The translations under genes and the position numbers were made by a program. A stretch of DNA of 56,208 bases, the filler included, from Sphacelaria rigidula (Eukaryota), in NCBI GenBank assembly GCA_964200075.2. It is 7 parts of 7 records of this genome, joined end to end, with 100 filler letters (N's around TTAATTAATTAA, not from the genome) between each part and the next. Parts side by side here need not be neighbours in the genome. Positions count along the whole stretch, not along the records: positions 16,091 to 24,034 come from CAXNAA020012893.1; 6 more parts are not named here. One strand, written 5' to 3'. Positions 1 to 50,196 of this stretch are shown piece after piece. The notes beneath the pieces are model-generated. The model did no database searches, was not told the origin of the DNA, and saw only the letters and a program-made list of their open reading frames with translations. Numbering within the stretch: position 1 is the first letter of the stretch; each line of letters starts with the position of its first letter.

Positions 1-297
1 GGAGGAACGGGACTTGCTAGAGGGGGAAATGCGGTACGTGAACAAAGGTGGCATGGAATTGTTTGATGCATTCGACAGGAGAGAGGAAACGATGGCTATA
101 CTAGGAGACAGATGGTTGCTAGAGACGGCGAAACAGGACGGGATAAAGTATGTAAAAGGTTTTTGTGTAATGTATGGAAGAAACGAAATGAGCGCCAGAA
201 TGTTGGAGGTGTGTCTATTCGGAGTAGGAACGGTGCTTCGTCTCGAAAGCGATGCGTGGTCAATGGTCACACGACTAAGGCAAGCAACAAATGAGTA
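1..297 (+). mobile_element. 3' end of non-LTR retrotransposon (family A), followed by a C-rich tract
   Basis: Clearly homologous to 52370-52668. It encodes the same C-terminus (..CNVWKKRNERQNVGGVSIRSRNGASSRKRCVVNGHTTKASNK*) and ends AAATGAGTA before a C-rich tract. Confidence 0.85.
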
Positions 298-3500: not shown

Positions 3501-6419
3501 TACTATTTTTCGTCCCGTCGGACCCCCCCGAAACGAGAAAAATGACGAGAAGGAAAAACCCTCGTCGATCGAAACTTGCATAATGACCCATAGTACAGTT
3601 GTGCAAAGTTTCAGGGTCTATCTCGTCATAACTGCGTGAAGGTTTGCGCGTTAATGCGAGGGCATGAACTTGAAACGTTCAAGCTCCTAACTACTTGGTA
3701 CTAGTATGAAAAACTGTTTCTTTAGTGAATTTCACGTCAAGTCAAGAAAGACTGCATGAGGTTTTCGATTGTCTCGACCAACCTTTGTAGCTGCGTTCCT
3801 TGGACTTTTCCGGGACACATCACATTATATTCTTCTTTTTGAAGCATTCTGTACCGCCCTCCGGAGGTCTTTACACTGGGACCCCTGGAAGGCGGTAGAG
3901 AACAGAGCAACGTTGAAATCTTACCAAGATTACGTTTTTTTTCCATTCGGAGAATCAATATCTACGGAACTGCCAAGTTTGAGGGTGATTTGAACTTTTC
4001 TACAACAGATACAAGGGAAACCGTCTCGAGGCTCCCTGGGTCTTTCGTGCGTATCATTTGTGGAAATTAGACCGCTCCAACCTCCACGTCACCGAAACAT
4101 GACGGTTTCGGGTATGATTCGACCCCGTTGGAACCGTTTTTACGTCTCTTTCGAACGTTAGATTCCTGAGCTTATGGCGGTTACTACAATTTGAAGCATG
4201 TGGAGATTAGGTGAAAATTGGGCTTGGAATCCGTGTTTTTCAATTTCAGAACAATTTGAAGGGCTCTGCTTGGTCGAGACACATTTTCGTCCATAGCGTC
4301 ACCGCTATAACTAACCTTTTAAAAATCTGGCTATGTCACCCTCTTCGTTTGTTCATTGAAACAATGTATGCGACTATTGGGTGCGTATTGCGGAAGGTAA
4401 TTGCTGATGACGGAACTTTGGTTTATGCGTGAACCAGCTTGTACCAGGGTATGATGAGGCATGATCACAGGTCGTACATGTTGGGGTGGTGGTTCCTAGT
4501 GGTCAAACTCGAGACTTCGCCATTTTTTATTGAAAGCGATTTGTTCCAGGTTTTTCGGTTACCACGACAGATCACGGTTTCTTTTTGATCCTGAACTTGT
4601 GGAATCATGAGACGTCAGCACCCGACACTAGTTTCGAGAAGATATATTTACTTTACGACCAATGATGAAGGAGAGTACAGCCCCCGGTTCTCATTTTTGA
4701 TATTTTCGCTTGACGGAACCGATCCGGATCGTATAATGAACAATTTTACAACTTTTGAGTGATGATGATTCGTCTGCGAAAAAGTCTCGATTGAGCAAGT
4801 GCCATATTTGAAGTGTCACTATAGTACTATATCCCCATCGATGTTGCTTGAAGTGCCGAACATATTGTTCAACAATCTACGGTAAGGCGGAGAATTGATA
4901 GGACGCGGGGAGAGAAACGAGCCAATCGCTGATATGTGGTGGATATGTTTTTCAAGAAGGTCGGTCACGATTGCCATTCATATCCAGTATTTCTTGACGA
5001 ACGTCCGACCTGTTGCGATATGGTATTGTCGGGTGAGGTCAAGAGGAGTAAAGGGCGGACCTTCGATCGGGAGAATTGAGAAGCACTGCCATATTCTGGG
5101 GACACTTTACGACTCCCTGCCCCTGATCGTACACAATTGGGAGCGGAGACTGATTATAAGTGTGCTGGGACGACATGCGATCACGTGATCAATAGAGATC
5201 GTTCTGTTGAGCACGGTACCCACCATCTCAATGCAAGCACAGCGAATTTATGCTGATCTATGTGTCCATCGTAAATTTAAGTCCAGGTGGTATGGTTTAT
5301 GCGCGGTTATCTTCAGCGAAGGCACAAGATGTCTTCCTGTTGGGCAACCTCCTGTACACCTTTCGCTTGTACGGGTTGTCTTTAGTTACCAATCATGCTG
5401 TGAAGTACGCCACGCACAACGTAAGCTGGGCTGCAACCAGGTTACCGCTTTTGTGCGGTAACCGTTGTGGTGGAGTTACATCATATGGTGCGGGGTGGAG
5501 AACCTCGACTCCGCGCGAAGGGAATGATTGTGCTACGTGGTATATCGGCGAGATACCCATGAGGCCGTGTAACCCGTGGCTGTCTCTGGAGGTGGCGATC
5601 CCGGAAAATTAAGTCTCTCAATCGAGGCTGTCATCTATGTGCAAGATAGTTAGTAGACTTCGGGCCAAGCAGTCTTCGCAGGATGCAGCTCACGCGACTC
5701 GCCGAACAGATCGCAGAGCTTGGCACTTGGCGATTGATTGGGAACTTGGTCGGCCGAAAACCCGGCGGGCTTCGTCCCGGCTATGAGGGGATGCGAGGCC
5801 ACTAGTCCTTCGACTACGGTATGCAAGATCATGAGTATACCCCCCACCCTCTGTGGTGTGTGTACTTTGTCCTCTATTCTCGTATGCCCCAGCTGAACGT
5901 TTTAAATGTCCTGCTCTCGCACTTCCCCCCCCCCGCTCTGTCTCGAAAGGGGTGCGTGGTCAATGGTCAAACGACTAAGACAAGCAAAAAATACGCCCCC
6001 CCCTCCCTCCCCGCCCGCCCGCCTGCTTATTGAACAGTCACCTCACAGTGGTGGCTGTCTCATGCGCGTTCGTATTTTCAAGCATTGTGCACGAGGCCGC
6101 CATGTTTGTGGCGATGCGGCACACGTGCTGGCCATTCAACACGTTTGCTCTGCTTCTGAGCAGCGTCCTCATGAGTCTGTGGGACGTTACGTGCCCCGTA
6201 CAGTCAATATTACAACCGCCATCTCCATCGCCAGAGGAGTCGTCAGTGCCATCGTCATCATCAAACGAGGTTGTAGGTTTCACACCCAGGGTGATGATGG
6301 GAAGCGAATGGAGGGGATGGGGCGCAGTGGCGTTTTACATGGGCACTTCTTTTCCGTTTTGCCTTACGCTGGATTACCTAGGTTGGCAGTGGTGGCGACA
6401 TGAAATACTTTCCGAGTGA
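518..6419 (+). CDS. MBOAT-family O-acyltransferase (DGAT1/sterol O-acyltransferase-like), 5'-partial; exons ~518-646, 1046-1254, 2611-2884, 6038-6419
   Basis: GT-AG exons join with consistent phases (2,1,2). The spliced product reads FLMFYAFWHCICLAAAELWGYPDRDFYG|PWWLVTDDLRLMFRMWSTPVHRWLAACIYRP ... AFVFSSIVHEAAM, which matches the DGAT1/ACAT motifs AEL..F.DR.FY.DWWN, WN.PVH.W and the catalytic His (S..FHE). The start of the first exon is uncertain (489 or 518). Confidence 0.85.
2960..3665. repeat. ~110-bp repeat unit, one inverted copy (~2995-3090) and two direct copies (~3165-3270, ~3555-3660), within an MBOAT intron
   Basis: Shared core AAAGTTGC..CAT..CCCATAG.ACA.TTGTG..A.A.TTTCAGG.TCTATCTC...CGTGAAGTTT. 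The first copy is the reverse complement. Confidence 0.55.
5365..5575 (+). repeat. Dispersed repeat, second copy at ~39240-39460
   Basis: Colinear similarity: CGTAAGCT..GCAACC.GGTTACCG..TTTTGCGGTAACC..TGGTGG..ATCATAT.GTGCGG.GTGG.AGAAC.TC.ACTCCGCGC.AAG..ATGAT..T.CTACGT.GT. Confidence 0.6.
5745..5839 (+). mobile_element. 3' end of non-LTR family B (ends GATCATGAGTATA + C-run)
   Basis: Matches 20079-20177 (CGAAAACCCGGCG..CT.CGTCCCGGCT...GGGATGCGAGG.CA.T.GTC...GACTA.GG.ATGCA.GATCATGAGTA.A) and is followed by CCCCCCACCC. Confidence 0.75.
5934..5995 (+). mobile_element. 5'-truncated 3' tip of non-LTR family A, flanked by C-runs
   Basis: TCTCGAAAGGGGTGCGTGGTCAATGGTCAAACGACTAAGACAAGCAA..TACG matches 52610-52668. 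C-runs lie on both sides. Confidence 0.8.
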
Positions 6420-11920: not shown

Positions 11921-12761
11921 CGAAGAGTTGGTGCGGATGCGAAAGTTTTTCCCTTTTTCGGCTTGTCATCTACACAGAAAAGCGCGATCTTCGGTTTTGG
12001 TAATGCGCTGTTTTGGAAGTTGTCCTTTGAAAATTGGTGTGAAGGATCGCAAGGGAGTGGTGGAAAACAACATCGGCACCGAAATTTTTGTTTTTTCGTG
12101 AGTTGGGGATGTTCTTTATCGTAAAATATGAATAATGTTTTTCGCCTCAATCATAGGACAAAACAAATCTTCAAGTCTTGTAGATGTTTCATGTATTACG
12201 CCCTTGCGATTTTCCACACCAATCTTCAAAATTCCCAAGCCTGAGCTGCTAAACTGCTTGCGACCTGCACATCCGTTTCCGGGCTGGCCCAGCTCGTAGC
12301 CTAGCTCGCTCCAAACAGCATCGGTATGTAAGAGGAGTATACCCGCAGTATCGTAAGGCAACAGCATCCGCACGCTATAGTATTTCTAGTATGCATACGA
12401 TGCAGGTTTGTCATGTACCGATCATAAAAAGAAGCCGTGATTTTGATTATGTACGTATCGCATGCACACAGCCCCCGTAGATCATGTACCACAGGACAGC
12501 AGCAGCAGCAGGACAAGAACGAGCCATGCTGACGATAGCGGGGTGTGCATGCTTGCTTCCATGAAAAAGAGGTCACACGTGTGTCAGATGAGCTGACACA
12601 CTCGCAGTGCGCTTGTTTTTGGGTTAAAACGATGTCAGTCAGGATGGAGGAGCCCCATGTATCGGTAAGAAGCGCGTTTGAACTACCGTTGTTGCTTTCA
12701 ACGACGATTTGAAGTGGAGCTTTGTGGACGCGAAATGGCCCAAACTACCCCCCCTCCCTAT

Positions 12762-14176
12762 CGAGGGGAGCAGGATTCTTAGTCAAGGAATACGTACACG
12801 AAGTCATGGAAATGGTCAAACGCACGGATTCCGACGAGAGCATATGGATGAGGGTACCAGGAGAGCGGGGAACGAAGGATTTCTTCCTAGAGAACATCTA
12901 TATGCCCCCAGAATCGAAGAGTAGGGCAAACGATATACAGCGGAGGTTTTGGAGAAATATCAGCAGATCTACAAACGTATCAAAGGCAAGGAGAAGTAAT
13001 ATCAGTGGGAGATTTGAATGCAAGAGTTGGAAAAGCAGGTCAACCGGATAATATCATTGGGTCAATACGGGAAAGATGCGAAGAGCACATATGGGGTAGA
13101 AATGCTGAAGTTTCTCGAGAGTAACGAGATGAAGACGCTGAACGATGGAGCACAAAAGTCAGAGGCACAATGGACATGGACTAGAAAATGCAAAGACGAG
13201 AGAGAACGCTCCGTTCTTGACTATACAGCGGTAGAGCACGGGAATAGTAAGGAAATGGAAGTGCGTGTATGTGCAGCGGACGTGGGAACTACATATCATC
13301 GCCTAATATGGACAGAAAGTCATCGGACGAACGCTAAAGAAATAGACGGGGTAGGAAGTTGCACAAATGGAGAATAGATTGACTAGAAATGGAAGAAAAA
13401 CAGCAAGAGCTCCAAGAGATGACCAAAATGCAGCAACCATTTCCGAGCTATTGGAGTGCGTAGGAACAGTTGATAGCGAAATGGAAAGGGGTCGGGCAGG
13501 AGCAAAGATTATAGAAGGACGGGGGCAGGTGGTCAAGCACACAGCGAGTAAAGTCATAAATTAGGGAAGAAACTGATCGTACACAACAGCAGCAAAATGG
13601 TGGGATGAGGAAGTAAAAGAGGCTATAAGAATAAGGAGATAGGCCCACGCAAGATACATATCGAGTGAAAGTACGGCAGGACGGGAGGAGTATACTAGTG
13701 CTCCAAAGGAAGTGAAAAATATGACGGAGAAGAAAAAAAAGGGATCATGAGAAGGTGGTGATTTTTTTTTTTGAGAATTTCGATGGCGGGATGAAACAAA
13801 TGTGGGCAGGGATAAAAGAGATGATGAGAAACCAGGCAGGAAAGATTGGACAACGGGATGGCCGCACTACGGACACAGAACGGTAAAATGGTTAGTAGTG
13901 CGAAGGAGAAGAGAGGAGTGCTAGTCGAGCACTATCGTAAACCAGGAACGCCAGAGGCTAACAACGAGTTCTACACGGACTTCAAGAAATAAATTTACGC
14001 TCAACGCATGGGCAGAGGCAACTGTAGAGGCGTCAAAACGGGAGGATAGTGGCTCCAAAGAACTGCAGACAGAGTTTACCAGAGACGAAGTAAAGGAGGG
14101 CGTAGCTAAACTCAAGAACAGAAAGGCAGCAGGGGCAGGCGAGCTAGTGACCAATGAAAAAACAAAAATACTATAG

Positions 14177-14218
<42 letters not shown>

Positions 14219-15250
14219 AGTAGTAGCAACAGCACACAAACTGCAAAAACAAGGTGTTCAACCGCGGCTCACTCATTCCATCCATCAATCGGGCAAAAAT
14301 TATCACGCATCAGAAATATGGTGGGGAATGAACACGTGAGTTTTTAAAGTACGCGGGAGGAGGAATTATTACCATGATGGTTATGCTGTACAACTGGATC
14401 TGGAGTGTACTCGACCAAAAAGAGGTCGAAAGAAGGAGTAGTCGTCAACCTTTTCAGGAAAGGAGACAAGGGTGATCCAGAAAATCATAGAAGAGTAACG
14501 CTACCGAGCACGGCAGGGAAAACTTTCTGTAAGATTCTGAATGATGGAGTAGGAACGACGATAGAAAAAGAAGAGAAAATCAGTGAGGGATAAGCAGGTT
14601 TTAGACCAAACCGTAGTTGTGTAGACCATGTGTACACATTAGGTAAACTTATTCGAGGCAGGCAAGATGCTGGGCAGACGACGTACTGTTTCTTTCTGGA
14701 CACACTAGAGGCCTATGGCACAGTATGGAGAAATGGGTTGTGAAAAAAGTTATGGAAGACGAGGATCAGAGGAAAGATGTGGAAAATGATGAAGAAGATG
14801 ACGGAAGGTGCCAAAAGCTATGATACTAGACGGAGAAATACCGAAATATTTTTATATCTTACAAGGACTTGCACAAGGATGTACGCTATCACCCACTTTA
14901 TTCAAGTTTTCAATAATGACTTGACAAGAAAATAGAAGCAGCAAAGCAAGGGGTTGAGGTGGGTGAAGATATGGTATCAGGATTGATGTTCGCGGATGAT
15001 TATGTGGGGATTTCAGAAACAGCAGAAATATTGCAGAAACAGACAGACAAAGCGATAGAATACACTAGGAAGCGGGGTGCGGCGAACTTTAATAAATGCG
15101 CGGTACTCATTTGTAACGAAGATAAGAAAAATCCGGTAGAGTTCAAGTGGAATTGGGGAGGAGAGGAATTGCCGATCGTAGACCAGTATACACACCTTGG
15201 CGTAGAGATCTCAAAAAACTGTTCTTGGGATGCATACATGAACAAAGTAA
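12762..15250 (+). mobile_element. Degraded APE-type non-LTR retrotransposon (family A), endonuclease plus RT, many stops and frameshifts
   Basis: EN motifs GAGFLV, IYMPPES, GDLNARV-like, TWT..SVLDY. RT motifs LFRKGDK.DP.N.R.VTL, AGFRPNRSC.D, G.AQGC.LSP.LF, LMFADD, YTHLG. It is colinear with 50197-51600, and a C-run (12748-12758) lies at the 5' junction. Confidence 0.9.
14178..14219. repeat. (ACAACG)n microsatellite inside a ~185-bp insertion (~14150-14336) that interrupts the LINE
   Basis: Hexamer repeat seen directly. The flanking LINE sequence is contiguous in the 50650-50700 copy. Confidence 0.85.
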
Positions 15251-15889
15251 TTCCATTTTTCAAATTGGTTGTTGTCTCAGGCCATTACAGATTCGGCATT
15301 GGATTTCTGTGACATAAAACTGTCTCGTTTTTTCAGAACACTTTTGAAGAAACAAGCAAAACTTAAAAAAAACAAGCGGAACTTTTCAAAAAACTGCCCA
15401 AAACGTGAAGGGTACTACACTGAACGCAACACAATTCTGCAGTGTTTTTTAGAACTTGAACACGCACTGTATACAGTATGCATTAACTAGTATACATCAG
15501 CTTCAGAACCTGAACACGGACTGTATACAGTATGCATCAGCTTCCCTTGTTGCGAAATTAATAGTGTCCAGCTGCTGTTGCTGTACTACTACGGAAGCAC
15601 ACGCCCTCGAGGTGCCACCCCACGTTTACCGTCATTGCGAACATATAACAGGACAAGAACATGAACTGCAGCGGTCGTGGCCGCCACACATCAACGTTAC
15701 TGCAGTGAAACGTGTGCCTGAACCGACACCACTACACTTTTGGCGTTTCTTCTTGTTGGCGACAACTTGGGCATCCGATTTTGTGGCAGGGTCCACCGAC
15801 TGAGCTGCGTGTTGGGGTGGGCGATCGCTGTTCACCTGCATCGGAATTTCCTCTTGTTTTTTCTATCGCTTAACCGTTTCACTGCAGTA

Positions 15890-15943
15890 ACGTTGCTTGC
15901 CTTAGTCGTTTGACCACTGACCACGCATCCCTTTCGAGACGGA
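15890..15943 (-). mobile_element. Family A LINE 3' fragment with a C-run at its 5' junction
   Basis: Reverse complement: (C)n TCCGTCTCGAAAGGGATGCGTGGTCAGTGGTCAAACGACTAAGGCAAGCAAC. Confidence 0.8.
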
Positions 15944-16315
15944 GGGGGGGGGGGGGGGAGGAAGCCCTCTATTGCCGCCCTGGGAGTCATNNNNNNNNNN
16001 NNNNNNNNNNNNNNNNNNNNNNNNNNNNNNNNNNTTAATTAATTAANNNNNNNNNNNNNNNNNNNNNNNNNNNNNNNNNNNNNNNNNNNNATGCCCCCCA
16101 GGCGTAAAAATGCTTTGTGCGGTATCTCACCAACCAAACCGCCGAATTCCTCGAATGGGGTACTATATGGTACCTGCATGCACAGCACGTGTGCTCAGGC
16201 AAAAAAAAGAAACAGATTGACTGTTAGGAACGCCGGAGCATCCACTCTGAATCTGAAATTTCCCTTTGAATCTCACGAATATAGTGCTGTCATAAGGAGC
16301 GGCCAGCACACAATA

Positions 16316-17936: not shown

Positions 17937-20900
17937 GGTTTTACTATCGACGGACACGTCGGTGAAGAAGAGGTTCGCGAATCATTCATCGACAAATGTG
18001 TGTACGTCGAGGGCTCTGGCGCGCCGACCAGTCTACAGTACCAAGGGCACGATGTGACCAGCTCTCTGATTGGTTTCGTCATGAATGACCTGTCGATCAA
18101 GAACTGCGGGTAAGCATTCACTCTATCCTTAAACATCGATGTTTGGTAAGTAAACTCGTCGCATAGAACTGGTATAGTCAAACTGCTGCGTATGCAAATC
18201 GCCGCAAAAACAGGAACTGTTTGTCGTCAGCTTCATGGTGATTGTAACTTGCATACCTCACCGGAAAATCAGAAAGACCGTCGCACCGCGTCAAACAGTC
18301 GATCAATAGAGTAGCTATGTGTGTTTCGTGCTTTGGAGTCATTCATCGGTACGACAACGGAGGCGGGGCGGGAATGGTTGCACCACAGCAGCCGTTTTGA
18401 GACCGCACTTACTTGATGAAAAGCACCGTAATCAAGATGACCGCTATGCAGATACTTAGCGCGAGATACCCTTCCCTCCGCGAAAGGTCACGTACACAAG
18501 CGTGTTTCCCGCGCCTCTACCGTGAGTCCACTCATTGCATATAGTAAAGCAAGTAACGCGTGCTTCTCAAAGCGCCGTCAGTGCCACCACTACAGCTATG
18601 CACGAAACTAACCACTTGATGTCGTTGCCACTTGTTGTTGCGACAATGAACGACTTCTCGCAGAGGCGAGTGCGTGCGTCTGAAGAACTTTGTAACCAAC
18701 GCGGAGCTCACGGATAACGTGATTGAGTACTGTGGCGTGTACGACTTCCGTTTTGACTTGGATGGCGGAAAAAACGGCGAAGCCATATACGTCGGGACTT
18801 CGAGTACCCAGTGGACCGACGGTCCTGACGGTAGCAACTTCAACATCATCAGCCGTAACGTGATGTCGCCCCACGGTAACGAGTGCATCGACGTCAAAGA
18901 GAGCGCCACGGGTAACATCATTGAAGACAATGACTGCGCAGATCAAATGGATTATGATTCCGGGTGCTATGGCTCAAGAGGCAGTGGAAACGTGTTCAGG
19001 TGAATGCCGGAGACTTGCATTCTGCGTCGTGTACCGCATTGTGTATGTTGTGCTGAAACATATATTGTAGAAGTACATGATACACCTAGTAGTGCTGCGA
19101 TCGCTTCCGCTTGCACGTGTTGTGTAACGAGCGGGTGCGCGACTTTTTCAGTATTGAAATTGCAGGTCTTGGCCCTCGAACGCTCTCAATGATCTTGGTT
19201 CTTATACCGTAGCATCCTCTTCCTCAAAACGCTTGAAATATTTACCTCGCTTTTTCCCTCAACGCTCTGAGGCAACCCCGGTGTGCGGTAGTATTTGTCC
19301 AACGTTATGTTTTGTCACACTACGTGTTTGTTCATTCAGGCGCAACCGCGGCAGCAACTGCGCAGGGGCAGGGATTCGTCTGGGAGGGTGGACGGTGGAT
19401 GGAGTGACCTATGGTCGAGATAACGAGGTGAGAAACTCGTCTGAGGTTGGCGGTTGATATACACTTCTCCTGTGGGCGGGAAAAGAGAGTATTATTGGGC
19501 ATCCCTAATTCGGTACACGAACCAACGAGAAGCGGAAAAGTCTCACAAGGAATACGAGTTCGTGAGACGACGCCTTGAGCCACTGGACAACTGTGCAGGG
19601 TAGTTGAGACCTTTGACTTCCAGACCCTGCATGCTGCATCGTTTGTTGCCTCTGTTCATGACGTCAACGCTCGACACTAGGACGCGACGCCGGCCAAACG
19701 TCTCCTTTCATTGCTTCGCTGATACCCGCCGTTTGAAAGGCCAAGTCATACAAGGGGGGTGTACTCATGATCATGCATGCCATAATCATAAGACAAGTCA
19801 TACAAGGGGGGCAGGAATGCACGGCACCACACACTCACGCACTTGCTTCATTACCCGTGCAGGTGTACGACAATGAGTTCGATACCACGGGCAGAGGAGC
19901 CATCAACGCCCAGGAGACTCCTCAGGGACTGATTTGCGGGAACAAATGCGATGAAGGAACGGGGCTCTGTGGTATTTATGGGTGAGCTTGGTTACTCGTG
20001 TGTTTCAATGTGCGGGCATTTGCTATCGCACGTGATCATTGGCGTCAGTCGTCGTATTTGTACCCCCCCCGTAAATGGCGAGCCTGGTCCGGCGAAAACC
20101 CGGCGTGCTCCGTCCCGGCTTTGTAGGGATGCGAGGTCAATGGTCTGATGACTATGGCATGCATGATCATGAGTACACCCCCCGTAAATGGTTCCGCCCT
20201 ATAAGCCGCTATTATTGCCCGTAGTAGCCACCGTTGGTGTGTCGATGTCACGCACCGATGCTCGAGCGGCTCGCTTTTGTCCCCCCCCCCGCCGCTCCTC
20301 TTCACGTCATGAAGGAATATCAGACAAAAAGCTGACAAAAGCGGATCCGAAATTACCGTTTAGTGTCGTCGGGCTGAAGGTATTGTGCGCGGGTTTTCTT
20401 ATGATGCATTTTTTTTAACGCGTGCTTCCCCGCCGTGTTACCTCCCTCGCTCCAACGCTTTTGGAACATTCAGAGTTGATGACCTTGACGTTATCGCCGA
20501 AGGGTGGAATCAACCCTGCCCTGATTCCCTTCCAGAAGTGCCTTTTATAGATGACACGGCGACCACTTCGTCGACACAGGACGGGGATGGTACCGGTATG
20601 ACCACATCGTCCATACAACAAAAGCCGGCAGTAACGACGCAAGAAGATGATGAGGAAGACGACACAAGCACCTCATCCACCAGCAGTACGCAAGAAGGGC
20701 AGTCAACATCAGCAGAAGAAGATGATGACCGTGATGAGGCCACCAGCAGCAGCAGCACCTATTCACAAGAAAATCCAACATCTACCACGTCGGCACAGGA
20801 GGGGGGTGAAGGGGTTGAAGATAGCGACGATACCAGCGCCCCATTTACACCAGCGCCCGTCGCATCTCCTGCACCAGAACGCACGACAACAGATCAGGAG

Positions 20901-22316
20901 GGTAATGGACAAGACGATTTCGATAGTTCATCCACACAATCGTCCTCAGCACCAGAGGAGGATGATGAAAACAATGAAGTGAATGAAGCCGATGATGATG
21001 ATGAAGACGAAGAAGACGAAAGTGAAGACGAAGAAAATCACGACTTCACCGTTTTGCCTACACCAGCACCAACTGCAGCTTCGACAGTACTACCAACTGC
21101 AGCTTACTCACCAGCACCAACTCCAGCTTCTACACCAGCGCCAAACACAGCAGCAGAAGAGTACCTGGAGCAAGGTGATAACACTACATCCTCTTCGCAA
21201 CAAGCGTCCACAGGGACAGAGAGAGAGGATGGAGACAATGAAGAAGGCGAGAAAGAAGGCGACGAAGAAGGCGATGAAGAAGGCGATGAAGACGAAGACG
21301 ACGACGACGAAGACGAAGGAAATAACGGCAGCATCCTTTTGTTTACACCAGCGCCAACCACAGCAACAGAAGAGTACGGCGAGCAAGGCCACACCACTAC
21401 ATCCTCTTCACAACAACAAGCATCTACAGCAACAACAGAGAGAGAGGATGAAGGCAATGAGGAAGGCGACGAAGAAGGCGATGAAGACGAAGACGACGAC
21501 GACGAAGACGGAGGAGATAACGGCAGCACCCTTTTGTTTACACCAGCGCCAACCACAGCAACAGAAGAGTACGGCGAGCAAGGCCACACCACTACATCCT
21601 CTTCACAACAACAAGCGTCTACAGCAACAACAGAGAGAGAGGATGAAGGCAATGAGGAAGGCGATGAAGAAGGCGATGATGAAGGCGAAGAAGGCAATGA
21701 AGAAGGCAATGAAGAAGGCGATGAAGAAGGCGATGAAGAAGGCGATGAAGAAGGCGATGAAGACGAAGACGACGAAGACGAAGACGGAAACGAAGGAGAT
21801 AACGGCAGCACCCTTTTGTTTACACCAGCGCCAACCACAGCAACAGAAGAGTACGGCGAGCAAGGTGACACCACTACATCCTCTTCACAACAACAAGCGT
21901 CTACAGCAACAGAGAGAGAGGATGAAGGCAATGAGGACGGCGATGAAGAAGGCGATGATGAAGGCGAAGAAGGCGATGGAGAAGGCGATGATGAAGGCGA
22001 TGGAGAAGGCGATGAAGACGAAAACGAAGGAGATGACGGCAACACCCTATTGTTTACACCAGCGCCAGCCACGGCATCAGAAGAGTATGGTGGGCAAGGT
22101 GATGCTACTACATCCTCTTCACAACAAGCATCTTCAGCGAATGAAGGGGATCACGAAGACAATGAAGAAGACGATGAAGACGATAGCATCGCCGTGTCAT
22201 CTACGGAGAACCGACTTACAACAACGTTTGAGGAATATGACCAAGGTGGCAATGGCGATGACGATGAAGATGGTGATAGTAGCCATAATAAGGGTAAAAA
22301 CGACCGTGACGACTAG
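17937..22316 (+). CDS. Right-handed parallel beta-helix (pectin lyase-like fold) protein with a long acidic S/T/E/D/P repeat C-terminus, 5'-partial; exons 17937-18109, 18664-18999, 19340-19427, 19863-19981, 20474-22316
   Basis: All four introns are GT-AG and phase-consistent (2,2,0,2). The spliced protein GFTIDG..DKCVYV..IKNCG|GECVRLKNFVTNAE..DNVIEYCGVYDF..GGKNGEAIYVGTS..GNECIDVKE..GNIIEDNDC..SRGSGNVFR|RN..AGAGIRLGG..DNE|VYDN has PbH1-type Asn-rich coils. Confidence 0.85.
19760..19793 (-). mobile_element. 34-bp 3' tip of non-LTR family B with a perfect 18-bp TSD
   Basis: CAAGTCATACAAGGGGGG at 19742-19759 and 19794-19811. The insert on the minus strand ends GCATGATCATGAGTACA. Confidence 0.9.
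20079..20177 (+). mobile_element. 99-bp 3' end of non-LTR family B with a 14-bp TSD
   Basis: CCCCCCGTAAATGG at 20065-20078 and 20178-20191. The insert ends GATCATGAGTACA. Confidence 0.9.
21130..22150 (+). repeat. Coding tandem repeat, ~5 units of (LLF)TPAPTTATEEYGEQG-TTSSSQQQAST-(EEGD)n
   Basis: The unit recurs at about 21130, 21340, 21530, 21810 and 22050, with variable 12-bp GAAGAAGGCGAT arrays. Confidence 0.9.
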
Positions 22317-24134: not shown

Positions 24135-24330
24135 GCTTTTGCCGAGTTTCCTCTGGCGGCGAGGCATTTTTCCCCACACGTCCTATTGCAGCGCGCCGAG
24201 AAGGCTCAGCGGTATATTACCGTTTGGGTTTGGGCGGCATCTGATACCTGTGGCGCGTGTTCTGGTCACCGAAAGTCGCTCAAACTGGCCCTTTTTCGCA
24301 CGGTGTCGATCCCGAACCAGAAAAGCCTCT
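24135..24330 (+). repeat. ~190-bp dispersed repeat, second copy at 33328-33522
   Basis: TTTTGCCGAGTTT.CTCTGGCGGC..AGAAGGCTCAGCGGTA..CATCTGATACCTGTGGCGCGTGTTCTGG..GGTGTCGATCCCGAA is present in two different contigs. Confidence 0.8.
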
Positions 24331-27300
24331 TCGAGTTTTTTTTTCTTTAGAGCGTGTTGCAGTTTCGTTTTTTGTGGGTACGTCTATCATGAGACCACGG
24401 CTGGAGCCCTAGGGGGTCAGTCAAAGTGCGACAATCAATCAATCAATCGATCAATCAATGGATCAATCAAATCAGATCGTGGAAAACTTGACAAAGTATA
24501 TATTTTCGACTTGCGTCACCCCCGGGAGGCCCGTACCAACGTCCCGAAGGGTAACCTTGTTTTATATATCATATATCATGTACAATATATAATATAAAAA
24601 GATCTCTACTGTCTACGGCGAAAAACCAGGGGACACACGGGTTGGTGTCCCCCCCTCAAAAACTCGAACTTTCGATCTTGGGGCCTACATGTCCCGATTT
24701 TTGTTTTCGACTGCCCCTTGGTGGAGTACTTAAAGCAAACAAAAAATAACTTCTGTGTTGACGTCCCTCCTGTGTGACCCCGGCTGATGCGCCCACATAT
24801 CAAGGTTTTGGCGTGGTGAGTGGGGATATAGGGACGCCTCTTTTCTCCAGGAAATACAATTCCATACTACAGTGGAGAGCGACTATGTCGTGGGTACACA
24901 AAATTCGACTCTACGGTCGACGAGGGACAGGGACTGCTGAACCCCCCTCGCGATAAAAAATAAAGGCGCACCAGGATACGGTGTCAACACTTCTTATCCA
25001 CTTGTCGAACCTCGTGCGAAGCGCAGCTCTGCAAGCACAGACAGTTCAGCAGTACAAGGTCGCACCTGTACAGTCTCCATTCGTCAACGTGGAAGCGAGA
25101 TACGTCTCCGCCGCCCGCGGACGTCGCGACCAGAAGCTCCCGTACGTTCTCCGTTTGTCGACAGTCGACACACGGGGAGTAGTTCGAACCAATCAGATCA
25201 CGTACTTTAACACCCCTCTCCCATCTCAGCCTCGGACGGCGTCGTCATGCACAAGCAAAGACAAAGAAGAGAGCAGCGATGAAGCTGAACCTTCTTGAGG
25301 GGTTTTAAAGTGATTCGGAGAGCCGATTGCTGCGTGTGATGCCTCCAACCTCCAAACGTGCCTCGTTTGAAGTTGCGACAGTCAAGTTTGAGAAGTTGAA
25401 TCAAGACCAGTGCTGGTCAAAAGGAGTCGAGTTGGGCTGTTCTTGAGACCGCTCACAGACAGAAGCGAAACACAACGCCATGAGCACCGATGAAGCTGAA
25501 ACTTCTTGAGGGCGTCTCGATTGGTAATAGAAGAGCGACGGGATGGTTCTTTCGCGCAGCGCGGCTTCGAATCCATCCGGGAAAAAAAATGCGTGGTTCT
25601 GGCCTTCGTTGTGAGAGCGGACGGATAGGATAGGACAGGACACTTTTTGAATTTCGGTCCAGTAGAACCCTTTTCGGCCTAGGGCTTCAAAGGAAAATGT
25701 TGACACGATGCACAGGATTTTTGTGCAAAGACTCCACCGTCTGCCCCGTACACTTATTCCCTTCTTTCTTTGAGTTATCGGCGACCGAACATCCCTGTTC
25801 GCGTCTCGGGCGGCCCAGCCTGTACAACAGCATTTATTTCGAACAGCAGAGGCTGTCCAAATTCCATATTTCGATAGCACTTGTGCTTACAAACCATCCC
25901 AGGGAATTTTAATGTTGACAGACCTTCGTGGGCCCCAAGATCAAAAATCATCTCGAGGACTGCGAATACCAAGGATCCTTTAGTGGGAATTTCAAAATTG
26001 TTGATAGCACCGCGACTAGTTCAGGCGCCGTGCTCGTCCTTTGAGGACTCTTGTTTTTGTACGGAAAGGCGGGAACGGCACGGCACGGGTGTAATTCATG
26101 CGCAAAATGCATGGCACGGGCACGCTGCACCTCAACTCCCACCGGCGGGGTATTGTCATCTTCTGTTTCTAGAGCTCACGTCACATTAGCTCAATTCCCT
26201 GAGAGCATTAGTTCCTTCTCTCCGACCCGTGATCACAGGGTGCAAGGAGCCAAAACGGTATAGAACACGAAAAGAACGAGCCCGCAAAAACCGATCGAAC
26301 TACAAGCAACGCACTGCAAGCTGACAAATTACCAACGTGCGATCTAGACGACCAAATTACCACCTACTGCTGCATATACGTGTAGAAACAGCAAACGCAG
26401 GAATCGACATGTCGCAGGCAGCGAGAACCATCCGGTAACAGACCTAGTAATTTAAGGAAAGATCCCAGGTTCAAGGAAATGAGGAAATAGCTTCATCACC
26501 GAAGCATCAACTGACTTGGCTCAACATCAGTATCAAGTGAGTTGATCACCCTATTATTAGTTCGGCGTAACTACCCAGAGCTAACACAGGTTTGAGAAAC
26601 TCATATCTTCTTGCTCTAGAAGCAGAAAATTCGTATGTATAGGAAATAGTTTAAAACTAAGGCCATATAGAACTCAGGACACTCTCGATCCCCCCTAACC
26701 TTGGCCCCCAAAAGGCACTGGGAAGAAGTTGATTTGACCACGTTACTGCACAGAAGACGACACAAAGCCGAAAGAACCGGAGCTCAAAATGAGAAGAAAA
26801 GATGTCGCTCAAAAGTCACAGATGCTGCCGAAAGTTGACATGAATGACGTCGGATGTGACGAAGTCCGTCACGTTCCGAGTGCAGGCATCTGGTGTTGGA
26901 ACGCATCAAGGTAGAAAGAAGGCGGGCAGGGGCAAAGTAAAGGAACGTAGAGACGTGAACAAGCGTGCAGGCTGGAGATTGCACTGAGGCATATTGAAAG
27001 CAAAAAAACAGGGCTGCCACCGATGACAGCAAGCATTGAAGGTGGGAGAGGGCAGGATGAAAATGGGACTAAACATGGTGCAGAGGGGGTTGAACGGGGA
27101 AAAGGGATGTATAGTTGTCGTACTTACCGTAAACTGTGGTTCAGTCTACAGCTCCGCTTCTGGTAGCCGTGGGTCGGGTACCCTGTCAAGTAGGATTGGG
27201 TTTCTTCTTTTCGGGTGGAGGGTCGGTTTTGCTTGGTGCGCACGGGATCGCCTCCGGGAGGGGATGGGGAATAAGTTTGACTCGCGGTACTTTCCGAGGT

Positions 27301-28679
27301 GTGGAGTTGTCGTTTCTCGAGGCAAACGACTCGTTCTCCTGCAAAAAATGCCGTTGGATATCCGGCAAGAGCTCGGTGGTATGGAGTGCTGACCCCAATG
27401 TCCGCGCCACACGCAAGGCAGAGGAAGGGGACCTGTTTCCCGGCGCCCTTTGGGACTGACCTTGTCTCCTGGGATACAGACGCGTGGGTAGTGCACACGG
27501 AGCACCTGCAGATGTTGAACGAATCGGGAGAAGGACGAAGGGACGGTTGCGAAACGTTTAGCGAGGAAAGTACCGAAGGAGACATAGTTGTACTGTGAGA
27601 AAATGCGTGACGAACGGGTGTTGAAAGCAACGACGTCAAGTAGGTGGAAAAGGAAGCAAGTGGGATAATAGGCTGCTTTCGGTGATCAGGTTACTCCACG
27701 AGGAACTTACAGTGGGAAAACCACCGGCTTGTTAGTAACTGTGGTATTCTATACAAGCAAGTACAGCATGTAGGAGTGTGTTGTATTGCGTTAACTCAAA
27801 GAAGGTGAGAGTCCCCTTCTAGCGCCCCGTTCCCCATGTGCGTTGAATCGTGGGCTGAAAATGGGTGATGTCAACTCCTGCGGGAAAGTACACCGAACAC
27901 CTGCATTAAATGGACTGAGAACTGGACCAGTTAATACTGTATATCTTCATTGTAACTGGAGTTAAACTGGAAATGGCTACGAATGCGCCAGTTGTCCAGT
28001 TCATCTGGAGGTGTTGTGCCGCTTGTCGTTACCAAGTATTTGTATATTTGTTTCATTTTGTGGAGTTTATAACAAAGGAGCACTTCATTTAATTAGACTG
28101 TACGATTGAAGTCTGCACTCTACAGCAGCACAGGTACCATAAACATCGTTGGTATCTAGTTGTTCTGCATTTTTCATAACTATTTCCGATATTTGCAGGG
28201 AAGATAGGTCAAACACCGTAATTTCTTCTGCCTTGGGCGGCGCTCCTGCGCGGCACCCCCCACCAGCCGGGAGGGGCGATTAACTGGGAAAACAAATGAT
28301 GTACTGGCAACTAGCGCGGCCAGTATCGACCGAACTGAACAGAGCTGATTGCTAACAGCCCTTACAAAAACGCTGTTTTTTTCGTAGGGTTAGGGTGTGT
28401 TCGGTAGGGTATGAGAGTCTTCACAAATCTTACAGAACTGACGAGTACCGGGATGAGATTCATACTTCGATACCTATAAGTATTTCATTTCCACAAGAGG
28501 AGCATAGTGGTGGATCAGAGCGTAGCGGGATCTGAAGGTTGTGGATCGGGACGAATTTTTACAACATGCAACTTTTAGCCAGCCGGACTTCAGTCAAGTA
28601 CGAATGCGGGTATGCGGATTTACATCATTGTTCCGGTCGACGGAGGAAAGAACAAATCATCCGTCGCTTGGCTGTCATG

Positions 28680-31199
28680 TAGGGCTGTATATCAACTATT
28701 TTTAGGGGTTGATTTGATTCTTGATTTTTCTTCCAAATCGGCTTGATCAAATCATGATCGGTTGATTCAATCAACTAATCAACGACACGTCAATTGAATC
28801 AACAAACTCGATTAGTTGATTTTTTCGGCAGAATTTTAGCAGCACCCAAGCCAAAAATCGGCTGAATTTTTTCGTGTGACAATATAGAGCACACGACCAC
28901 GCATACGCAAGCCCACAGCAGCAGCACAGCAGTCTTGTGTTCAATATTTTTGCTTCATCTGCTGCATCGGTACTCCAGCACCCCGTCTTCCTGCACTACC
29001 CCTGCATTTTACTTCGAAACGCTCTCAAATATGGAACGTGTACGCCTCAAACTTGTCTGGCAAAAAAAACGAAAGTGGTAGCCAGATTGCACGAAGATGA
29101 TTCCCGACGTTGATACTTGAGATGGTCAATGCTACCGTATTCGTGCCGGTACGTTGCAATTTGGTGTCCGGATGTTTCGTACGGTCAGTATATGTGCTTC
29201 AAGGACGTACGGGTGTTATAGGAACAATGGTATATGATTTTGGTTACGTCTACTACACCATCGGTGACCTTGGTCCACGTGCATTGCAAGCCCCGCTTGG
29301 AATCGCTGCACGACCCGGCCCGGTCGACGGCCGTTCGCTTTCAGTCGACCGGTATTGCACACATGAAAATTCCGGGCTTCACGAGCTACTTTTTTCCAAA
29401 TATCACACCATTGATGCAAAAGAAGTGACCGAAGTTCACGAGGAAAACGAATGAAAAAAGTTGAATCCACTTGAATTCGAATTATGATATGCCTTACATG
29501 AGGCATGAAAAAAAAACGAATTCATGGTCGACGAGGGAAAGAGAGAGCTGAACCCTCTCTCGATGAAAAATATAAGGCAAGCCCCGCAGAACGAAGGCGG
29601 AGAAAGCAACGCTACGGTAGGGGTGCACGAAATGTTTCTGGGTAGGGGTACCGGATGGAGACTACAGCAATGCCGCGAAACCCCCCCCAAAAAAACCAAA
29701 TACAGGCATAGACCGGGCTGGATTGGAGGTGTGTGCGATACTCTGCGACCAAGTATGTGCGATGCATGAGACATGTCACCGGTCCAACAATACAGCGAGA
29801 GAAGGCCTCAGAGAAGATTTCGCGAAAAAGGTGCACCCCTACCGCCGTAGCATTGCTCGAGAACTCGAACAAATGAGAAAGGACAAGAAGTCCTGTGTTG
29901 GCCTTCCTCCTGTGTTACCCCGGCTGGTGCGCCCACATATTCCAGAAGGTATAGACTGGTGTCCAGAATAGATGGGATGACAACACACACAGTCATTCTG
30001 GGACAGGCGACCCCCATATCAGCCCTCAAAACTGTCACGGCAATAAAAAATTGCGGGACACTCCAGTTTTTTTCATACAGCATGCACACGCGGCCAGCTT
30101 TTTTCATACGGAGGAATTAAACGCCTCCGCAGGTGTGCGCGGCCCTCCAGAGGAAATTCTTTGGTTTCCTCCAGATGGATTAAACGTCTCCGGAGGCTTG
30201 TTTTTGCCTCTGGAGGGCCGCGCATGCCCCAAATTCCTCCGGAGGGGTGCGCGGCTCTCCAGGTCGGTAGAGGTTTGTTTCGTCCAGAGGGATTGAAAGT
30301 CTCCGGAGGCTTGTTTTGCCTCTGGAGGGCCACGCATCCCTCTGGAGGCGTGTAAGGGGGTAGCCAAATGGCCGCGTGTGTGAGGTGCCTCATGGACGAC
30401 ATTGGCGGGTTTTACGACTACTGTAGCGATTTTGCAGCTGCTCTGTGCATACACGAGGTTCTTTTCTTCGTTTCGTGTGACAGGTCTACGTGAAATTTTG
30501 TTTGGCGTAGATTTTGTCACAGTGGACTGTGCAAACCATTTCGTGAAATGTTCTACACTACAGGGCTTTTGACCGCGGGTACGGAGTATGTACTTCGGAC
30601 TAGAATGATACAAAACGGGACCAGCTGCCGGTTTTGGACGTGAGCTAACCTTGCCTGCGCTCACCACAGACAGTCCCGCGAAAATGTGTCATCGCGAAAG
30701 CTCCGCCGACCGAACGTCCGTAAAGAGTCTGACCAGCGAAATTATATGGAGCTAGATCAATGAAAATGAGACGACAACGTTTCCCTGTGACGACGGATCG
30801 TGAGCGTCACCCTACCTCAATCCACAAAATACAGCACAGGCACCATAGGTACAGTAGGTACCCGGTACCGCTATTTGGGACATCTCATACCCTACCGATA
30901 CCGGTCCAATCGGGTATTTAAAAATGTCATACCTACGAGTCGATGAGTAGACATATCCGTCGATCGATGGTTGCGCCGCAGGCAAAAAAAAAGGTTACAC
31001 GACGCAAACGCCTCTTTTCTTCCTGAAAAAAGTCAACTAATCATGACTACATCAAGTATTTTGACTTGATTGATTGAAGTTGATTAGATGATATAAATCA
31101 ACTAATCAGCGAGGCGTTGACGTGATCGTTGATATATATCAAATATACTTTGAGATCAAAATCAATCGTGATTTATTTGATAGTTGATATACAACCGTA
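28680..31199. mobile_element. Non-autonomous hAT-like DNA transposon (~2.5 kb)
   Basis: TIRs TAGGGCTGTATATCAACTAT / ATAGTTGATATACAACCGTA. 8-bp TSD CTGTCATG (28672-28679) / GTGTCATG (31200-31207). Both subterminal regions are rich in TGATT/AATCA motifs. No transposase ORF was recognised. Confidence 0.8.
30135..30352. repeat. ~110-bp tandem duplication with internal CCTCCAGAGG/CCTCTGGAGG inverted motifs
   Basis: GTCTCCGGAGGCTTGTTTT(T)GCCTCTGGAGGGCC occurs twice about 112 bp apart. Confidence 0.75.
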
Positions 31200-32178
31200 G
31201 TGTCATGATAATTTAGATAGAACCTACCACGGCTCGGACGAATCACTGCCGGTTCGAGTAGCCAAATCCACGATTTTTTAGTGCTGATTGCTCAAAATAG
31301 AGAAAAAAAGTCGACCGCTTGTCAAACAGGTCTCCACGCAACTTTTGCACCATTCCATGTGCCTGGGCTGCGCGTACCTGGCTTGCAACGCTGGAAACAA
31401 AGCCTAAGGATTAATTCGTACGGGAAATCACCTACACTAAAATCAAGTGATTTCTAGACGAATCATCAATTCGTCCGACCGTGGGAAGCTACAGACAGTG
31501 TAGTGCAGTACAGTACAGACAGTACAGTATCGTTTACTGTTCTCAACGAAGCACCTCCGGCTTCTCCTCGATGTTTGTAATGGGGACACACACACAGCAC
31601 AGTGGGAGCGCACACTCGGCATACAATACACACACTTGGCTGTAGACTTAAAGAGGGAAGCCAGAAGAGAGAGAGGGAGGGAGAGATAGCAACACACAGT
31701 AGGACACAGCAACAACAGCAGACCCCAGACGCCTTGCCTTCGGTTGCCGAAATACTGTATGCATCAGAGAAAAGGCACTCTCAGTACACATTACACGAAC
31801 TCTTGGCTGTATACTGAGAAGAGGCGAGGCAGAAAAGACAGGAGAGAGACCAACACAGACAGCGATGATCATGGTAGATGCGAACTCCTAGCGGATTTTT
31901 GACTACAGCCAGGCTCACCTTGCCGATTTGTGGTCGCTCCATCCTTGTCGTCCGGGGCAAAAGTTCGCGACGCGACGACCCGATTTGAGTTCGCTCGTAG
32001 CAGGGTTGGTACGACATCAACACTTAACAGCCGATTTTCGAAAATGGGGTTGAAAAACAAAATGAGGTTCAACTCAAANNNNNNNNNNNNNNNNNNNNNN
32101 NNNNNNNNNNNNNNNNNNNNNNTTAATTAATTAANNNNNNNNNNNNNNNNNNNNNNNNNNNNNNNNNNNNNNNNNNNN

Positions 32179-32251
32179 AGCTTTTGAAGAAACGTAATGA
32201 GCGCCAGAATGTTGGAGGTGTCTCTATTAGGAGTAGGAACAGTGCTCCGTC
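32179..32251 (+). mobile_element. Family A LINE near-3' fragment at contig start
   Basis: GAAGAAACGTAATGAGCGCCAGAATGTTGGAGGTGTCTCTATTAGGAGTAGGAACAGTGCTCCGTCT matches 177-243 and 52546-52612. Confidence 0.8.
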
Positions 32252-32364
32252 TGGGGGGGATCCGACGTGGTCACATGACGGGCGTACCCGAGACAAACAA
32301 AACCGAAACAATCGCTGACGAAAAACGAACAGAAAAGTTAGAACAAAACGACAGAGTAGACTAG

Positions 32365-38665: not shown

Positions 38666-39136
38666 TGCCGCAAAAAACTATCACCCTGTGTAAAAAAAAA
38701 ACGTGATGTGGAAGCCACAGTTATGTACAAAGAATATGCCGAGAGTTTCCACGCATTCCATTTTTTTTGGAATTATCTCCCGCTGTCATGTCTTTGTGGC
38801 ACGAGAGCTACTACTCACTCTGGCACCTCGGGAATGCCACACATGTCCTACGCCGGCGGTTCCGCCGTCGGTCTCCGTCCGAATTCCCCTATTTCCGAAC
38901 GACATCCGAAAACGCATGCGATGTTTTGTACAGCGACGATCTCTACTGTGCATTTAGATACAACAGTCTATCTTGACCATATATTCTCGATTTGCCCCTA
39001 CCAACCTCCCGAACGGGAATCTTGTATATATATACACATTTTTCGTCCCCGTCAATTATTTTAGCCCAATTTCCTTTCGTGGGACAAGGCCGTAGTCTCA
39101 AGTCTCAATGGGTCGACCCATTTCTCCCCCGGTATA

Positions 39137-39202
39137 CGCTCCGTCTCGAAAGGGATACGTGGTTAATGGTGAAACGACCAAGGCAAGCAACAAATGAGTA
39201 CG
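39137..39202 (+). mobile_element. Family A LINE 3' tip followed by a C-run
   Basis: GCTCCGTCTCGAAAGGGATACGTGGTTAATGGTGAAACGACCAAGGCAAGCAACAAATGAGTACG|CCCCC, with CTCCCCC just upstream. Confidence 0.8.
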
Positions 39203-47948: not shown

Positions 47949-48137
47949 CTGTTAAAACCGTTGAATCACAAAAAAAAAGGAGAGCAGGACGTGTGTGAGA
48001 GACAGTTTGGCAGCTTGAAGAAGCAAAAAAAAACGGAGATATATACACGCACGTATCGCTTGCTGCTTGCCGGTTAGGTACTACTGCTGTATCACCTTTT
48101 GCATCACCTTTTGACACCGCGGGGGGGGAGGGGGGGG

Positions 48138-48165
48138 TACTCATGATCTTGCATGCCATAGTCAT
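48138..48165 (-). mobile_element. Family B 3' end followed by a C-run, truncated by the contig end
   Basis: Reverse complement ATGACTATGGCATGCAAGATCATGAGTA|CCCCCCCCTCCCCCCCC. Confidence 0.8.
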
Positions 48166-49953: not shown

Positions 49954-50196
49954 TGAACCTATTTATCACAGCGATATGTTTTTCGTGTCGCCGCAATTTC
50001 TGGGAGCCCGAAGCATTTGATGAGGCAGCTTCTCAGAATATCACGGAAAAGATAAGCCGCGTTTGGTCGTTGTATTTGATGAACGACAAATAAACCGGCT
50101 ACTGTTTCTGGGGGGTCAGGTATGTAGCGCCCGCGCCGACTATATAGAGTACTGTACTCTACTGCACTGTACCCCCACTCCCCCCTCCCCCCTGTG

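Follow-up and report, generated by a model that had tools for sequence, protein, structure and literature searches.

Copies of two related repeats in the brown alga Sphacelaria rigidula (assembly GCA_964200075.2) lack a poly(A) tail, and where they can be read cleanly the target-site duplications (TSDs) around them begin with a short run of C. The repeats are an autonomous long interspersed nuclear element (LINE), here called B, and a short non-coding partner, A, and the reading that we favor, and hold to be probable with some reserve, is that the pair has spread by target-primed reverse transcription (TPRT) into oligo-C/oligo-G tracts. The whole stretch of DNA that was analyzed, hereafter the window, comprises 56,208 bases in seven pieces of about 8 kb separated by runs of N, and positions without a contig name refer to it. 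It holds nine copies of A or B with an intact 3' end, and five pairs of 5' and 3' runs were compared.

C-runs at the ends of tail-less copies

A preliminary description of this DNA, made from the sequence alone, had singled out three clean insertions with TSDs that start in the C-run. On re-reading the sequence we find these at 19760, 20079 and 53450 as described, and each of the junction coordinates it gave holds. The insertions and their TSDs are the following.

19742..19759 (- strand): TSD copy on the element's 3' side of the 19760 insertion, CCCCCCTTGTATGACTTG on the element strand, with C6 abutting the element 3' end
19760..19793 (- strand): 34-bp, 5'-truncated copy of the non-autonomous element A, read directly, ending ATGAGTACA
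19794..19811 (- strand): TSD copy on the element's 5' side of the 19760 insertion, the identical 18-mer CCCCCCTTGTATGACTTG
20063..20078 (+ strand): 5' TSD copy of the 20079 insertion, C8 + GTAAATGG
20079..20177 (+ strand): 99-bp unit of the non-autonomous A element, intronic in an expressed gene
20178..20191 (+ strand): 3' TSD copy of the 20079 insertion, C6 + GTAAATGG
53426..53449 (+ strand): 5' TSD copy of the 53450 unit, C7TC9GTATCGT
53450..53514 (+ strand): 65-bp unit of the 3' end of the autonomous element B, ending AAATGAGTACG
53515..53536 (+ strand): 3' TSD copy of the 53450 unit, C8TC6GTATCGT

The TSDs of these insertions are 18, 14-16 and about 22-24 bp long. The 18-bp duplication at 19760-19793 has, as had been reported, exactly C6 on both sides, and the 3' end of this copy matches that of the 20143-20183 copy at 95%. 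The C6GTAAATGG given earlier for the 20079 insertion is found on the 3' side, with the 5' copy reading C8GTAAATGG. Between the conserved ...GAGTA and the TSD there is only C[AG]. Because the C-run lies inside the TSD and, on the 5' side, upstream of the unique TSD sequence, it is in all three cases target sequence that was present before the insertion, in agreement with what had been proposed.

The pattern is not confined to these three copies. Immediately downstream of the intact 3' ends in the window, a run of at least five C is seen in 8 of 9, when only 0.22% of oriented window positions begin such a run (binomial P about 6e-21); the earlier statement that the remaining 3' ends enter C-rich DNA is thus borne out, the copy at 1-297 being the single one with a merely C-rich flank. 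A C-run or C-rich tract precedes, by 0-14 nt, all 8 of the 5' junctions that could be located in the window, among them the 5' ends at 12755, 15944 (-), 50197 and 56148, and the 5'-junction runs noted before at 12748, 15944 and 50180 occupy 12748-12754, 15944-15958 and 50180-50192. At 5935-5995 and 39138-39202 C-runs alone stand on both sides. Copies of A or B occur on six of the seven window pieces, again as described, with none in the piece 24135-32078. They range from 34 bp to 2.47 kb with a common fixed 3' end and variable 5' truncation, and an A-run follows the 3' end in none of the nine window copies and none of five copies outside the window, as expected of elements described as having no poly(A) tail.

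The outside copies were found with a degenerate pattern for the B 3' end, which matched four contigs. All five of their 3' ends lie in C-runs, namely C8 (L001), C10 (L002), C10TC9 (L003, +), C13 (L004) and C5 (L003, -), the last belonging to an A-like, non-coding copy similar to the A copies of the window. Two of the four contigs, L002 and L004, carry an intact single open reading frame (ORF). A pattern scan of viral contigs gave 0 matches, and a search with the L002 protein recovered only L004 among related loci and nothing in viral contigs. A match to the A-type 3' end in a Pseudomonas syringae scaffold (L005) was dropped and judged to be chance, because it has neither upstream similarity nor a C-run.

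The further A and B copies in the window are these.

1..297 (+ strand): 3' portion of an older B copy, the window starting inside it; C-rich flank, no pure run
5555..5839 (+ strand): longer non-coding A copy of at least 285 bp, followed by C6 (5840-5845)
5935..5995 (+ strand): B unit, with C10 before (5925-5934) and C8 after (5996-6003)
12755..15251 (+ strand): internal B fragment from endonuclease to reverse transcriptase (RT), located by tblastn/blastn to L002/L004; 5' truncation just past C7 (12748-12754), 3' part absent
15892..15958 (- strand): B-unit piece of 53 bp (15892-15944) that begins at the usual B-unit start, after C15 (G15 on +, 15944-15958); 3' end lost
39138..39202 (+ strand): B unit, with C5 + GGTATAC before (39126-39137) and C5 after (39203-39207)
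48138..48165 (- strand): 3' end of an A copy that is interrupted where its piece stops, followed by C8TC8 (48121-48137 on +)
50197..52668 (+ strand): 2.47-kb, 5'-truncated, frameshifted B copy (RT and C-terminal region) with RVT_1 matches and 84% DNA identity to L002; flanks C-rich at 50180-50192 (5') and C9 at 52669-52677 (3')
56148..56208 (+ strand): segment of a further A copy, internal or 5'; similarity begins 14 nt past C8 (56140-56147)

We compared 19300-20600 with contigs of four public sequencing runs (X1, X3, X4 and X5, from three studies, in which order counts are given). The unit is present on 53,124, 38,745, 60,285 and 2,953 contigs, and the unique flanks around it have a depth of 12-29. 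A C-dominated consensus stands behind 20181-20183 in at least 1,228, 432, 1,225 and 152 contigs and before 20079-20084 in at least 546, 546, 582 and 81; at least 686, 600, 715 and 75 further contigs extend on the upstream side into the longer A element. Joints with a backward step of 100-106 bases correspond to tandem unit-Cn-unit arrays, of which the joint 20183->20081, seen in 22, 15, 20 and 2 contigs, is an example. The C flanks are therefore genome-wide, and the pattern extends beyond the window both in the five outside copies and in the C-dominated flanks of all four runs. X4 has no cover at 19828-20047. X5 is RNA-like, with one spliced contig (record 25) that joins 19980 to 20473, so that the 99-bp A copy is intronic; the A unit is seen in X5 only within longer contigs. 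About 19981-20472 is an intron of an expressed + strand gene, X5 also covering 19344-19431 and 19861-19980.

A different explanation of these flanks is that the C-run is a poly(C) tail borne by the element, either templated or added by the RT, and that the 5' C-runs are the tails of older copies. The C-tract does start right after ...GAGTA, where a distant relative (G001, see below) has a true (TAT)n tail, long C-tracts lie behind many copies, and the tandem arrays would also suit such a tail. What speaks against it are the three insertions above, in which the 5' C-run is upstream of unique TSD sequence with no older copy adjoining, and the lengths of the runs: the 5' and 3' members of the five pairs are 6/6 (at 19760), 8/6, C7TC9/C8TC6, 10/8 and 5/5. 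The 3' run is longer in 0 of 5 pairs, which argues against an added tail, and 3' runs longer than target runs were precisely what the preliminary description had named as telling against its own reading. We consider an element-borne tail very unlikely.

Anatomy of the element pair and its relatives

B is a LINE with a single ORF of about 1,400 aa that encodes an endonuclease and an RT and, at its C-terminus, a CCHC motif. The intact ORF of L002 (1,426 aa) matches Exo_endo_phos (PF03372) at 6.7e-13 and RVT_1 (PF00078) at 1.1e-30, that of L004 (1,382 aa) matches the same two families at 8.1e-11 and 6.7e-32, and the B copy in the window has an RVT_1 match at 6.9e-10. The motifs IQESW, GDFNAR and TTDH are readable in the intact ORFs, and near the C-terminus of both there is a CX1CX8HX4C arrangement, CPCGKAIESR[TV]HIV[AG]EC. 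The elements had been called apurinic/apyrimidinic endonuclease (APE)-type and non-LTR (without long terminal repeats), a designation that agrees with these intact relatives, in which Exo_endo_phos and RVT_1 occur in one ORF. The element ends ...GGCAAGCAACAAATGAGTACG, that is, ...AAATGAGTACG, and its TGA stop codon lies inside the terminal ATGAGTACG (...AAATGAGTACG), only 5 nt from the element end. The RT fragment at 50838-51620 has its best named protein matches in Ectocarpus sp. at 57-61% identity, with closer proteins at 75-77%, and on this evidence too the DNA looks like that of a brown alga. A PDB sequence search with the RT returned L1 ORF2p (E 3e-22) and R2 (4e-18), neither of which is diagnostic of a clade.

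About 200 aa ahead of the endonuclease in the L002 and L004 ORFs are conserved among relatives and have no Pfam match; an example, at about residues 60-140 of L002, reads ...DMTRIEFKRKC..GLYC...VEREGEHFRVTL... Both L003 (a contig of a Sulfitobacter metagenome-assembled genome, or MAG) and L004/L006 (an uncultured bacterium MAG contig) hold LINE copies of the brown-alga type, including the intact 1,382-aa ORF, and these contigs are probably host DNA binned by mistake.

A ends ...ATCATGAGTACA / ...GGCATGCATGATCATGAGTACA and has only the last ~70 nt in common with B, a conserved hairpin included. Since the sequence upstream of this shared end is non-coding, A is a dependent, non-autonomous partner of B. 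The initial view that all copies are LINE copies therefore stands in part: an APE-type LINE is present in the form of B, but the 99-bp and 34-bp copies belong to the non-coding A.

A distant relative found by profile search in G001 (loci L007-L074) provides a contrast. It has the same ORF layout at 35-59% amino acid identity and retains the 3' motif GCGTGGTCAATGG...GGCAGC..CATGAGTA (GCGTGGTCAATGG...GGCAGCAACATGAGTA). There are 47 matches to the 39-nt LINE 3' motif in G001, and at the 30 loci where the flank was read it starts with at least five C in 0 and with TAT in 24. In four distinct copies with TSDs, an A/T tail of 5-11 nt lies between GAGTA and the TSD; the TSDs do not start with the repeat, and the variable (TAT)n/(TATT)n tail sits outside otherwise ordinary TSDs. 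The same method thus gives an ordinary picture in this relative and an unusual one in the brown alga, and because the relative has the same motif and hairpin but a (TAT)n tail outside its TSDs, C-run targeting is specific to the brown-alga lineage.

LINE loci in G001: L007, L009, L011-L013, L015-L020, L025-L031, L035-L040, L042-L074

G001 itself is a record titled 'MAG: Nitrospirales bacterium' with contigs of up to 2.7 Mb and dozens of LINE copies, and appears to be eukaryotic sequence filed under a bacterial name. Another distant relative, at L008:3087-3400, ends ...CATGAGATAAC and leads into tandemly repeated DNA whose unit measures roughly 35 nt. Besides the C-run and (TAT)n, this makes a third type of 3' flank for the clade.

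The hairpin in the common 3' motif has a stem of 5 bp capped by a tetraloop and lies about 22 nt from the end. In 19 sequences that represent about four lineages, pairing is seen in 92.6% of cells vs. 21-56% in slid controls, and 2 of the 5 pairs change on both sides. For the 12 brown-alga 3' ends alone, RNAalifold gave a weak structure with 0 compensatory pairs, and support appeared only once the distant relatives were added. As a putative recognition element for the RT the hairpin has moderate support, since the change events are few and the region is also protein-coding.

Possible routes into C/G homopolymers

In the reading that we favor, a nick would open the G-strand of a C/G homopolymer, either at the run's edge or a few bases in, and the freed oligo-G 3' end would prime cDNA synthesis at the last bases of the element (...GAGTAC[AG]). 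C-rich RNA that directly follows the element, from read-through or as a short stretch of C, would probably pair with this primer and keep it in place. A second nick about 5-24 nt further on would have the effect that the TSD begins with the C-run; the order in which the strands are nicked is taken from the standard model. Because each new copy carries a C-run on its 3' side, copies would attract further insertions, yielding unit-Cn-unit arrays and duplicated C-runs. From the earlier interpretation, a tail-less APE-type LINE, a C-run that is target and a pattern extending outside the window are all retained, whereas a preference of the endonuclease for the run and the pairing of the primer with the RNA are steps that we only infer. 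The run may be chosen by the nuclease, by annealing of oligo-G to the RNA, or by both, and annealing combined with an unspecific nick would fit equally well.

This last possibility can be put as an explanation of its own, in which the endonuclease nicks with little preference and C-runs are selected at priming through a C-rich 3' extension of the element RNA. The extension would be read-through into the donor flank, and only nicks that expose oligo-G would pair and be extended. Every copy examined lies upstream of a C-run, so a read-through transcript would end in C's. The 3' runs that are shorter than their 5' counterparts (8/6, 10/8) suit a primer that pairs inside the run, and the G001 relative, with the same 3' motif next to a different repeat, indicates that the tail or flank can be replaced while the protein stays much the same. 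On the other side, no transcript 3' end has been seen, the RNA-like X5 having the unit only inside longer contigs. Selection purely at priming seems to us unlikely, if worth keeping in mind.

In a bolder version of the favored reading, the endonuclease would have evolved a structure- or sequence-specific nick, placed on the G-strand where oligo(dG)-oligo(dC) forms a short tract. Direct oligo-G priming and self-duplication of the target would follow, and would be responsible for tens of thousands of copies or more, for the unit-Cn-unit arrays and for a large part of the C/G homopolymers that the genome has in excess. We put this version forward tentatively, as possible and on balance rather doubtful. 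If true, it would describe a self-reinforcing target system that mirrors the T-run/poly(A) logic of L1 with the other base pair.

The insertions could also have arisen without the endonuclease, by capture of cDNA where fragile DNA that is G-rich or structured, for example prone to form G-quadruplexes, had broken. G/C homopolymers are structure-prone, and C/G runs of at least six are over-represented in the window, with 51 observed vs. about 20 expected from base composition (~2.5x). Regular TSDs (14-24 bp) together with precise 3' ends are, however, the signature of staggered nicks, the APE catalytic motifs are kept in the intact copies, and one G6 run cannot form a quadruplex. Break capture is accordingly an explanation to which we give hardly any credence.

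Several points weigh against TPRT into C-runs as we have described it. Agreement within the loose-end consensus of the run contigs is low (0.38-0.49), k-mer contigs can break or collapse in homopolymers, X1 may be the sample behind the window assembly, and, among the rows listed, the X3 loose ends behind 20168 (213 contigs) have a non-C consensus. No empty (pre-insertion) allele appeared, in that none of the 15 joints listed skips the insertion at 19760 or that at 20079. The C-rich flank at 1-297 contains no pure run, and seven unexplained bases lie between the 5' C5 and the element at 39138. In the full-length L002 and L004 copies similarity fades into repetitive 5' regions, and no 5' end or TSD is definable. 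A further difficulty is that the 5' starts of the short units cluster sharply at preferred positions. B units begin at GCTCCGTCTCG, at the same base in four window copies (5935, 39138, 53450 and 15944 (-)), and A units begin at 20079-20083, a 5-base range, in hundreds of contigs. Random 5' truncation would not yield such starts, and the model of TPRT into C-runs leaves them unexplained. A ribozyme or tRNA as their cause was rejected, as Rfam searches (E up to 10) of 19700-20250 and 52300-53600 returned no ribozyme, tRNA or other known RNA.

Comparison with known families and other repeats

L1 elements combine an APE endonuclease with an RT, move by TPRT from a TTTT/A nick site, end in a poly(A) tail and have Alu/SINE (short interspersed nuclear element) partners. 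The pair described here resembles L1 and Alu in a homopolymer-like target that would pair with the RNA 3' end, in TSDs and 5' truncation, and in a short partner that is the more numerous. It differs in having no poly(A), a C/G run as target, an ORF that stops only 5 nt short of the end and a conserved 3' hairpin, and its RT is only distantly L1 ORF2p-like by the PDB search above. RTE and RTE-X elements have a single ORF and a very short 3' untranslated region, and both features are found in B (1,382-1,426 aa, stop 5 nt before the end). To our knowledge, RTE elements proper have no Cys-His motif after the RT, a feature of uncertain applicability to RTE-X, and such a motif is present in both intact ORFs of B. 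In stringent LINEs of the L2/UnaL2 kind the RT recognizes a 3' stem-loop; a stem-loop near the 3' end is conserved here, its function being predicted. Target choice by LINEs is usually loose, as with the T-rich nick site of L1, or tied to long repeats or multicopy genes.

LINEs of the RTE-X and RTE groups occur in brown algae (PMC12477816, PMC4421812), and Ectocarpus has in RTEX-N1 (RTEX-N1_Ec32) a short non-autonomous element that is more abundant than RTEX-1/2 and has only the 3' end in common with them (PMC12477816). The A/B pair is like RTEX-N1/RTEX-1 in its host group and in a partner that shares only the 3' end, which is a likeness of layout (PMC12477816). The main text of that paper makes no mention of homopolymers, of C-rich or G-rich sequence or of insertion preference, and its Supplementary Material 3 may cover 3' flanks.

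APE-type LINEs specific for microsatellites or other repeats are reported from the Tx1 and R1 clades, e.g., Togen at (TG)n (PMC4640811). Like elements of the Togen type, the brown-alga elements insert into a simple repeat, occasionally in tandem, with the 3' flank of the element matching the target (PMC4640811), and the insertions show one repeat type with matching flank on both sides (3' ends at C-runs in 8/9 in the window and 5/5 outside). In contrast to those elements, the targets here are short runs scattered through introns and not long arrays. The simple-repeat targets named in the portion of PMC4640811 consulted are microsatellites such as (TG)n, a C/G homopolymer target not being mentioned there. 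No description of a LINE that targets C/G homopolymers was found in the literature, a search that extended to neither Repbase/Dfam notes nor the family supplement of PMC12477816, either of which may already document the C flanks.

A tail-less family with short, dispersed C/G runs as its target would, if the reading is true, be a natural experiment on the parts played by endonuclease and by primer-template pairing, for which relatives of the G001 type, with the same 3' recognition motif and a different tail, offer a ready comparison. The LINE and its partner may explain the over-representation of C/G runs in brown-alga genomes, and the A element accounts for a very abundant intronic repeat. Repeats flanked by homopolymers also carry a warning, in that they will break short-read assemblies. 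An endonuclease/RT with a simple, short and definable target could be of interest to researchers on targeted-insertion enzymes.

Some other features of the window remain to be listed. At first sight a copy interrupted by a G7 run, the sequence at 32179-32290 is better taken as an old divergent 3' end and was not counted. Within it, at 32253-32290, the sequence goes on after ...GCTCCGTCT as GGGGGGGATCCGACGTGGTCACATGACGGGCGTAC, which has the look of a third variant of the 3' end, old and shortened. The interval 20947-22183 is a block of diverged tandem repeats with 71-83% identity between copies, in a region of strong A-over-T skew. Another short repeat, which starts TCAAAAACTCGAA..., is found at 431-495 and 24656-24720, in each case directly after a C-run (C22 at 409-430 and C7 at 24649-24655), and C-runs may thus be used by more than one family in the window.

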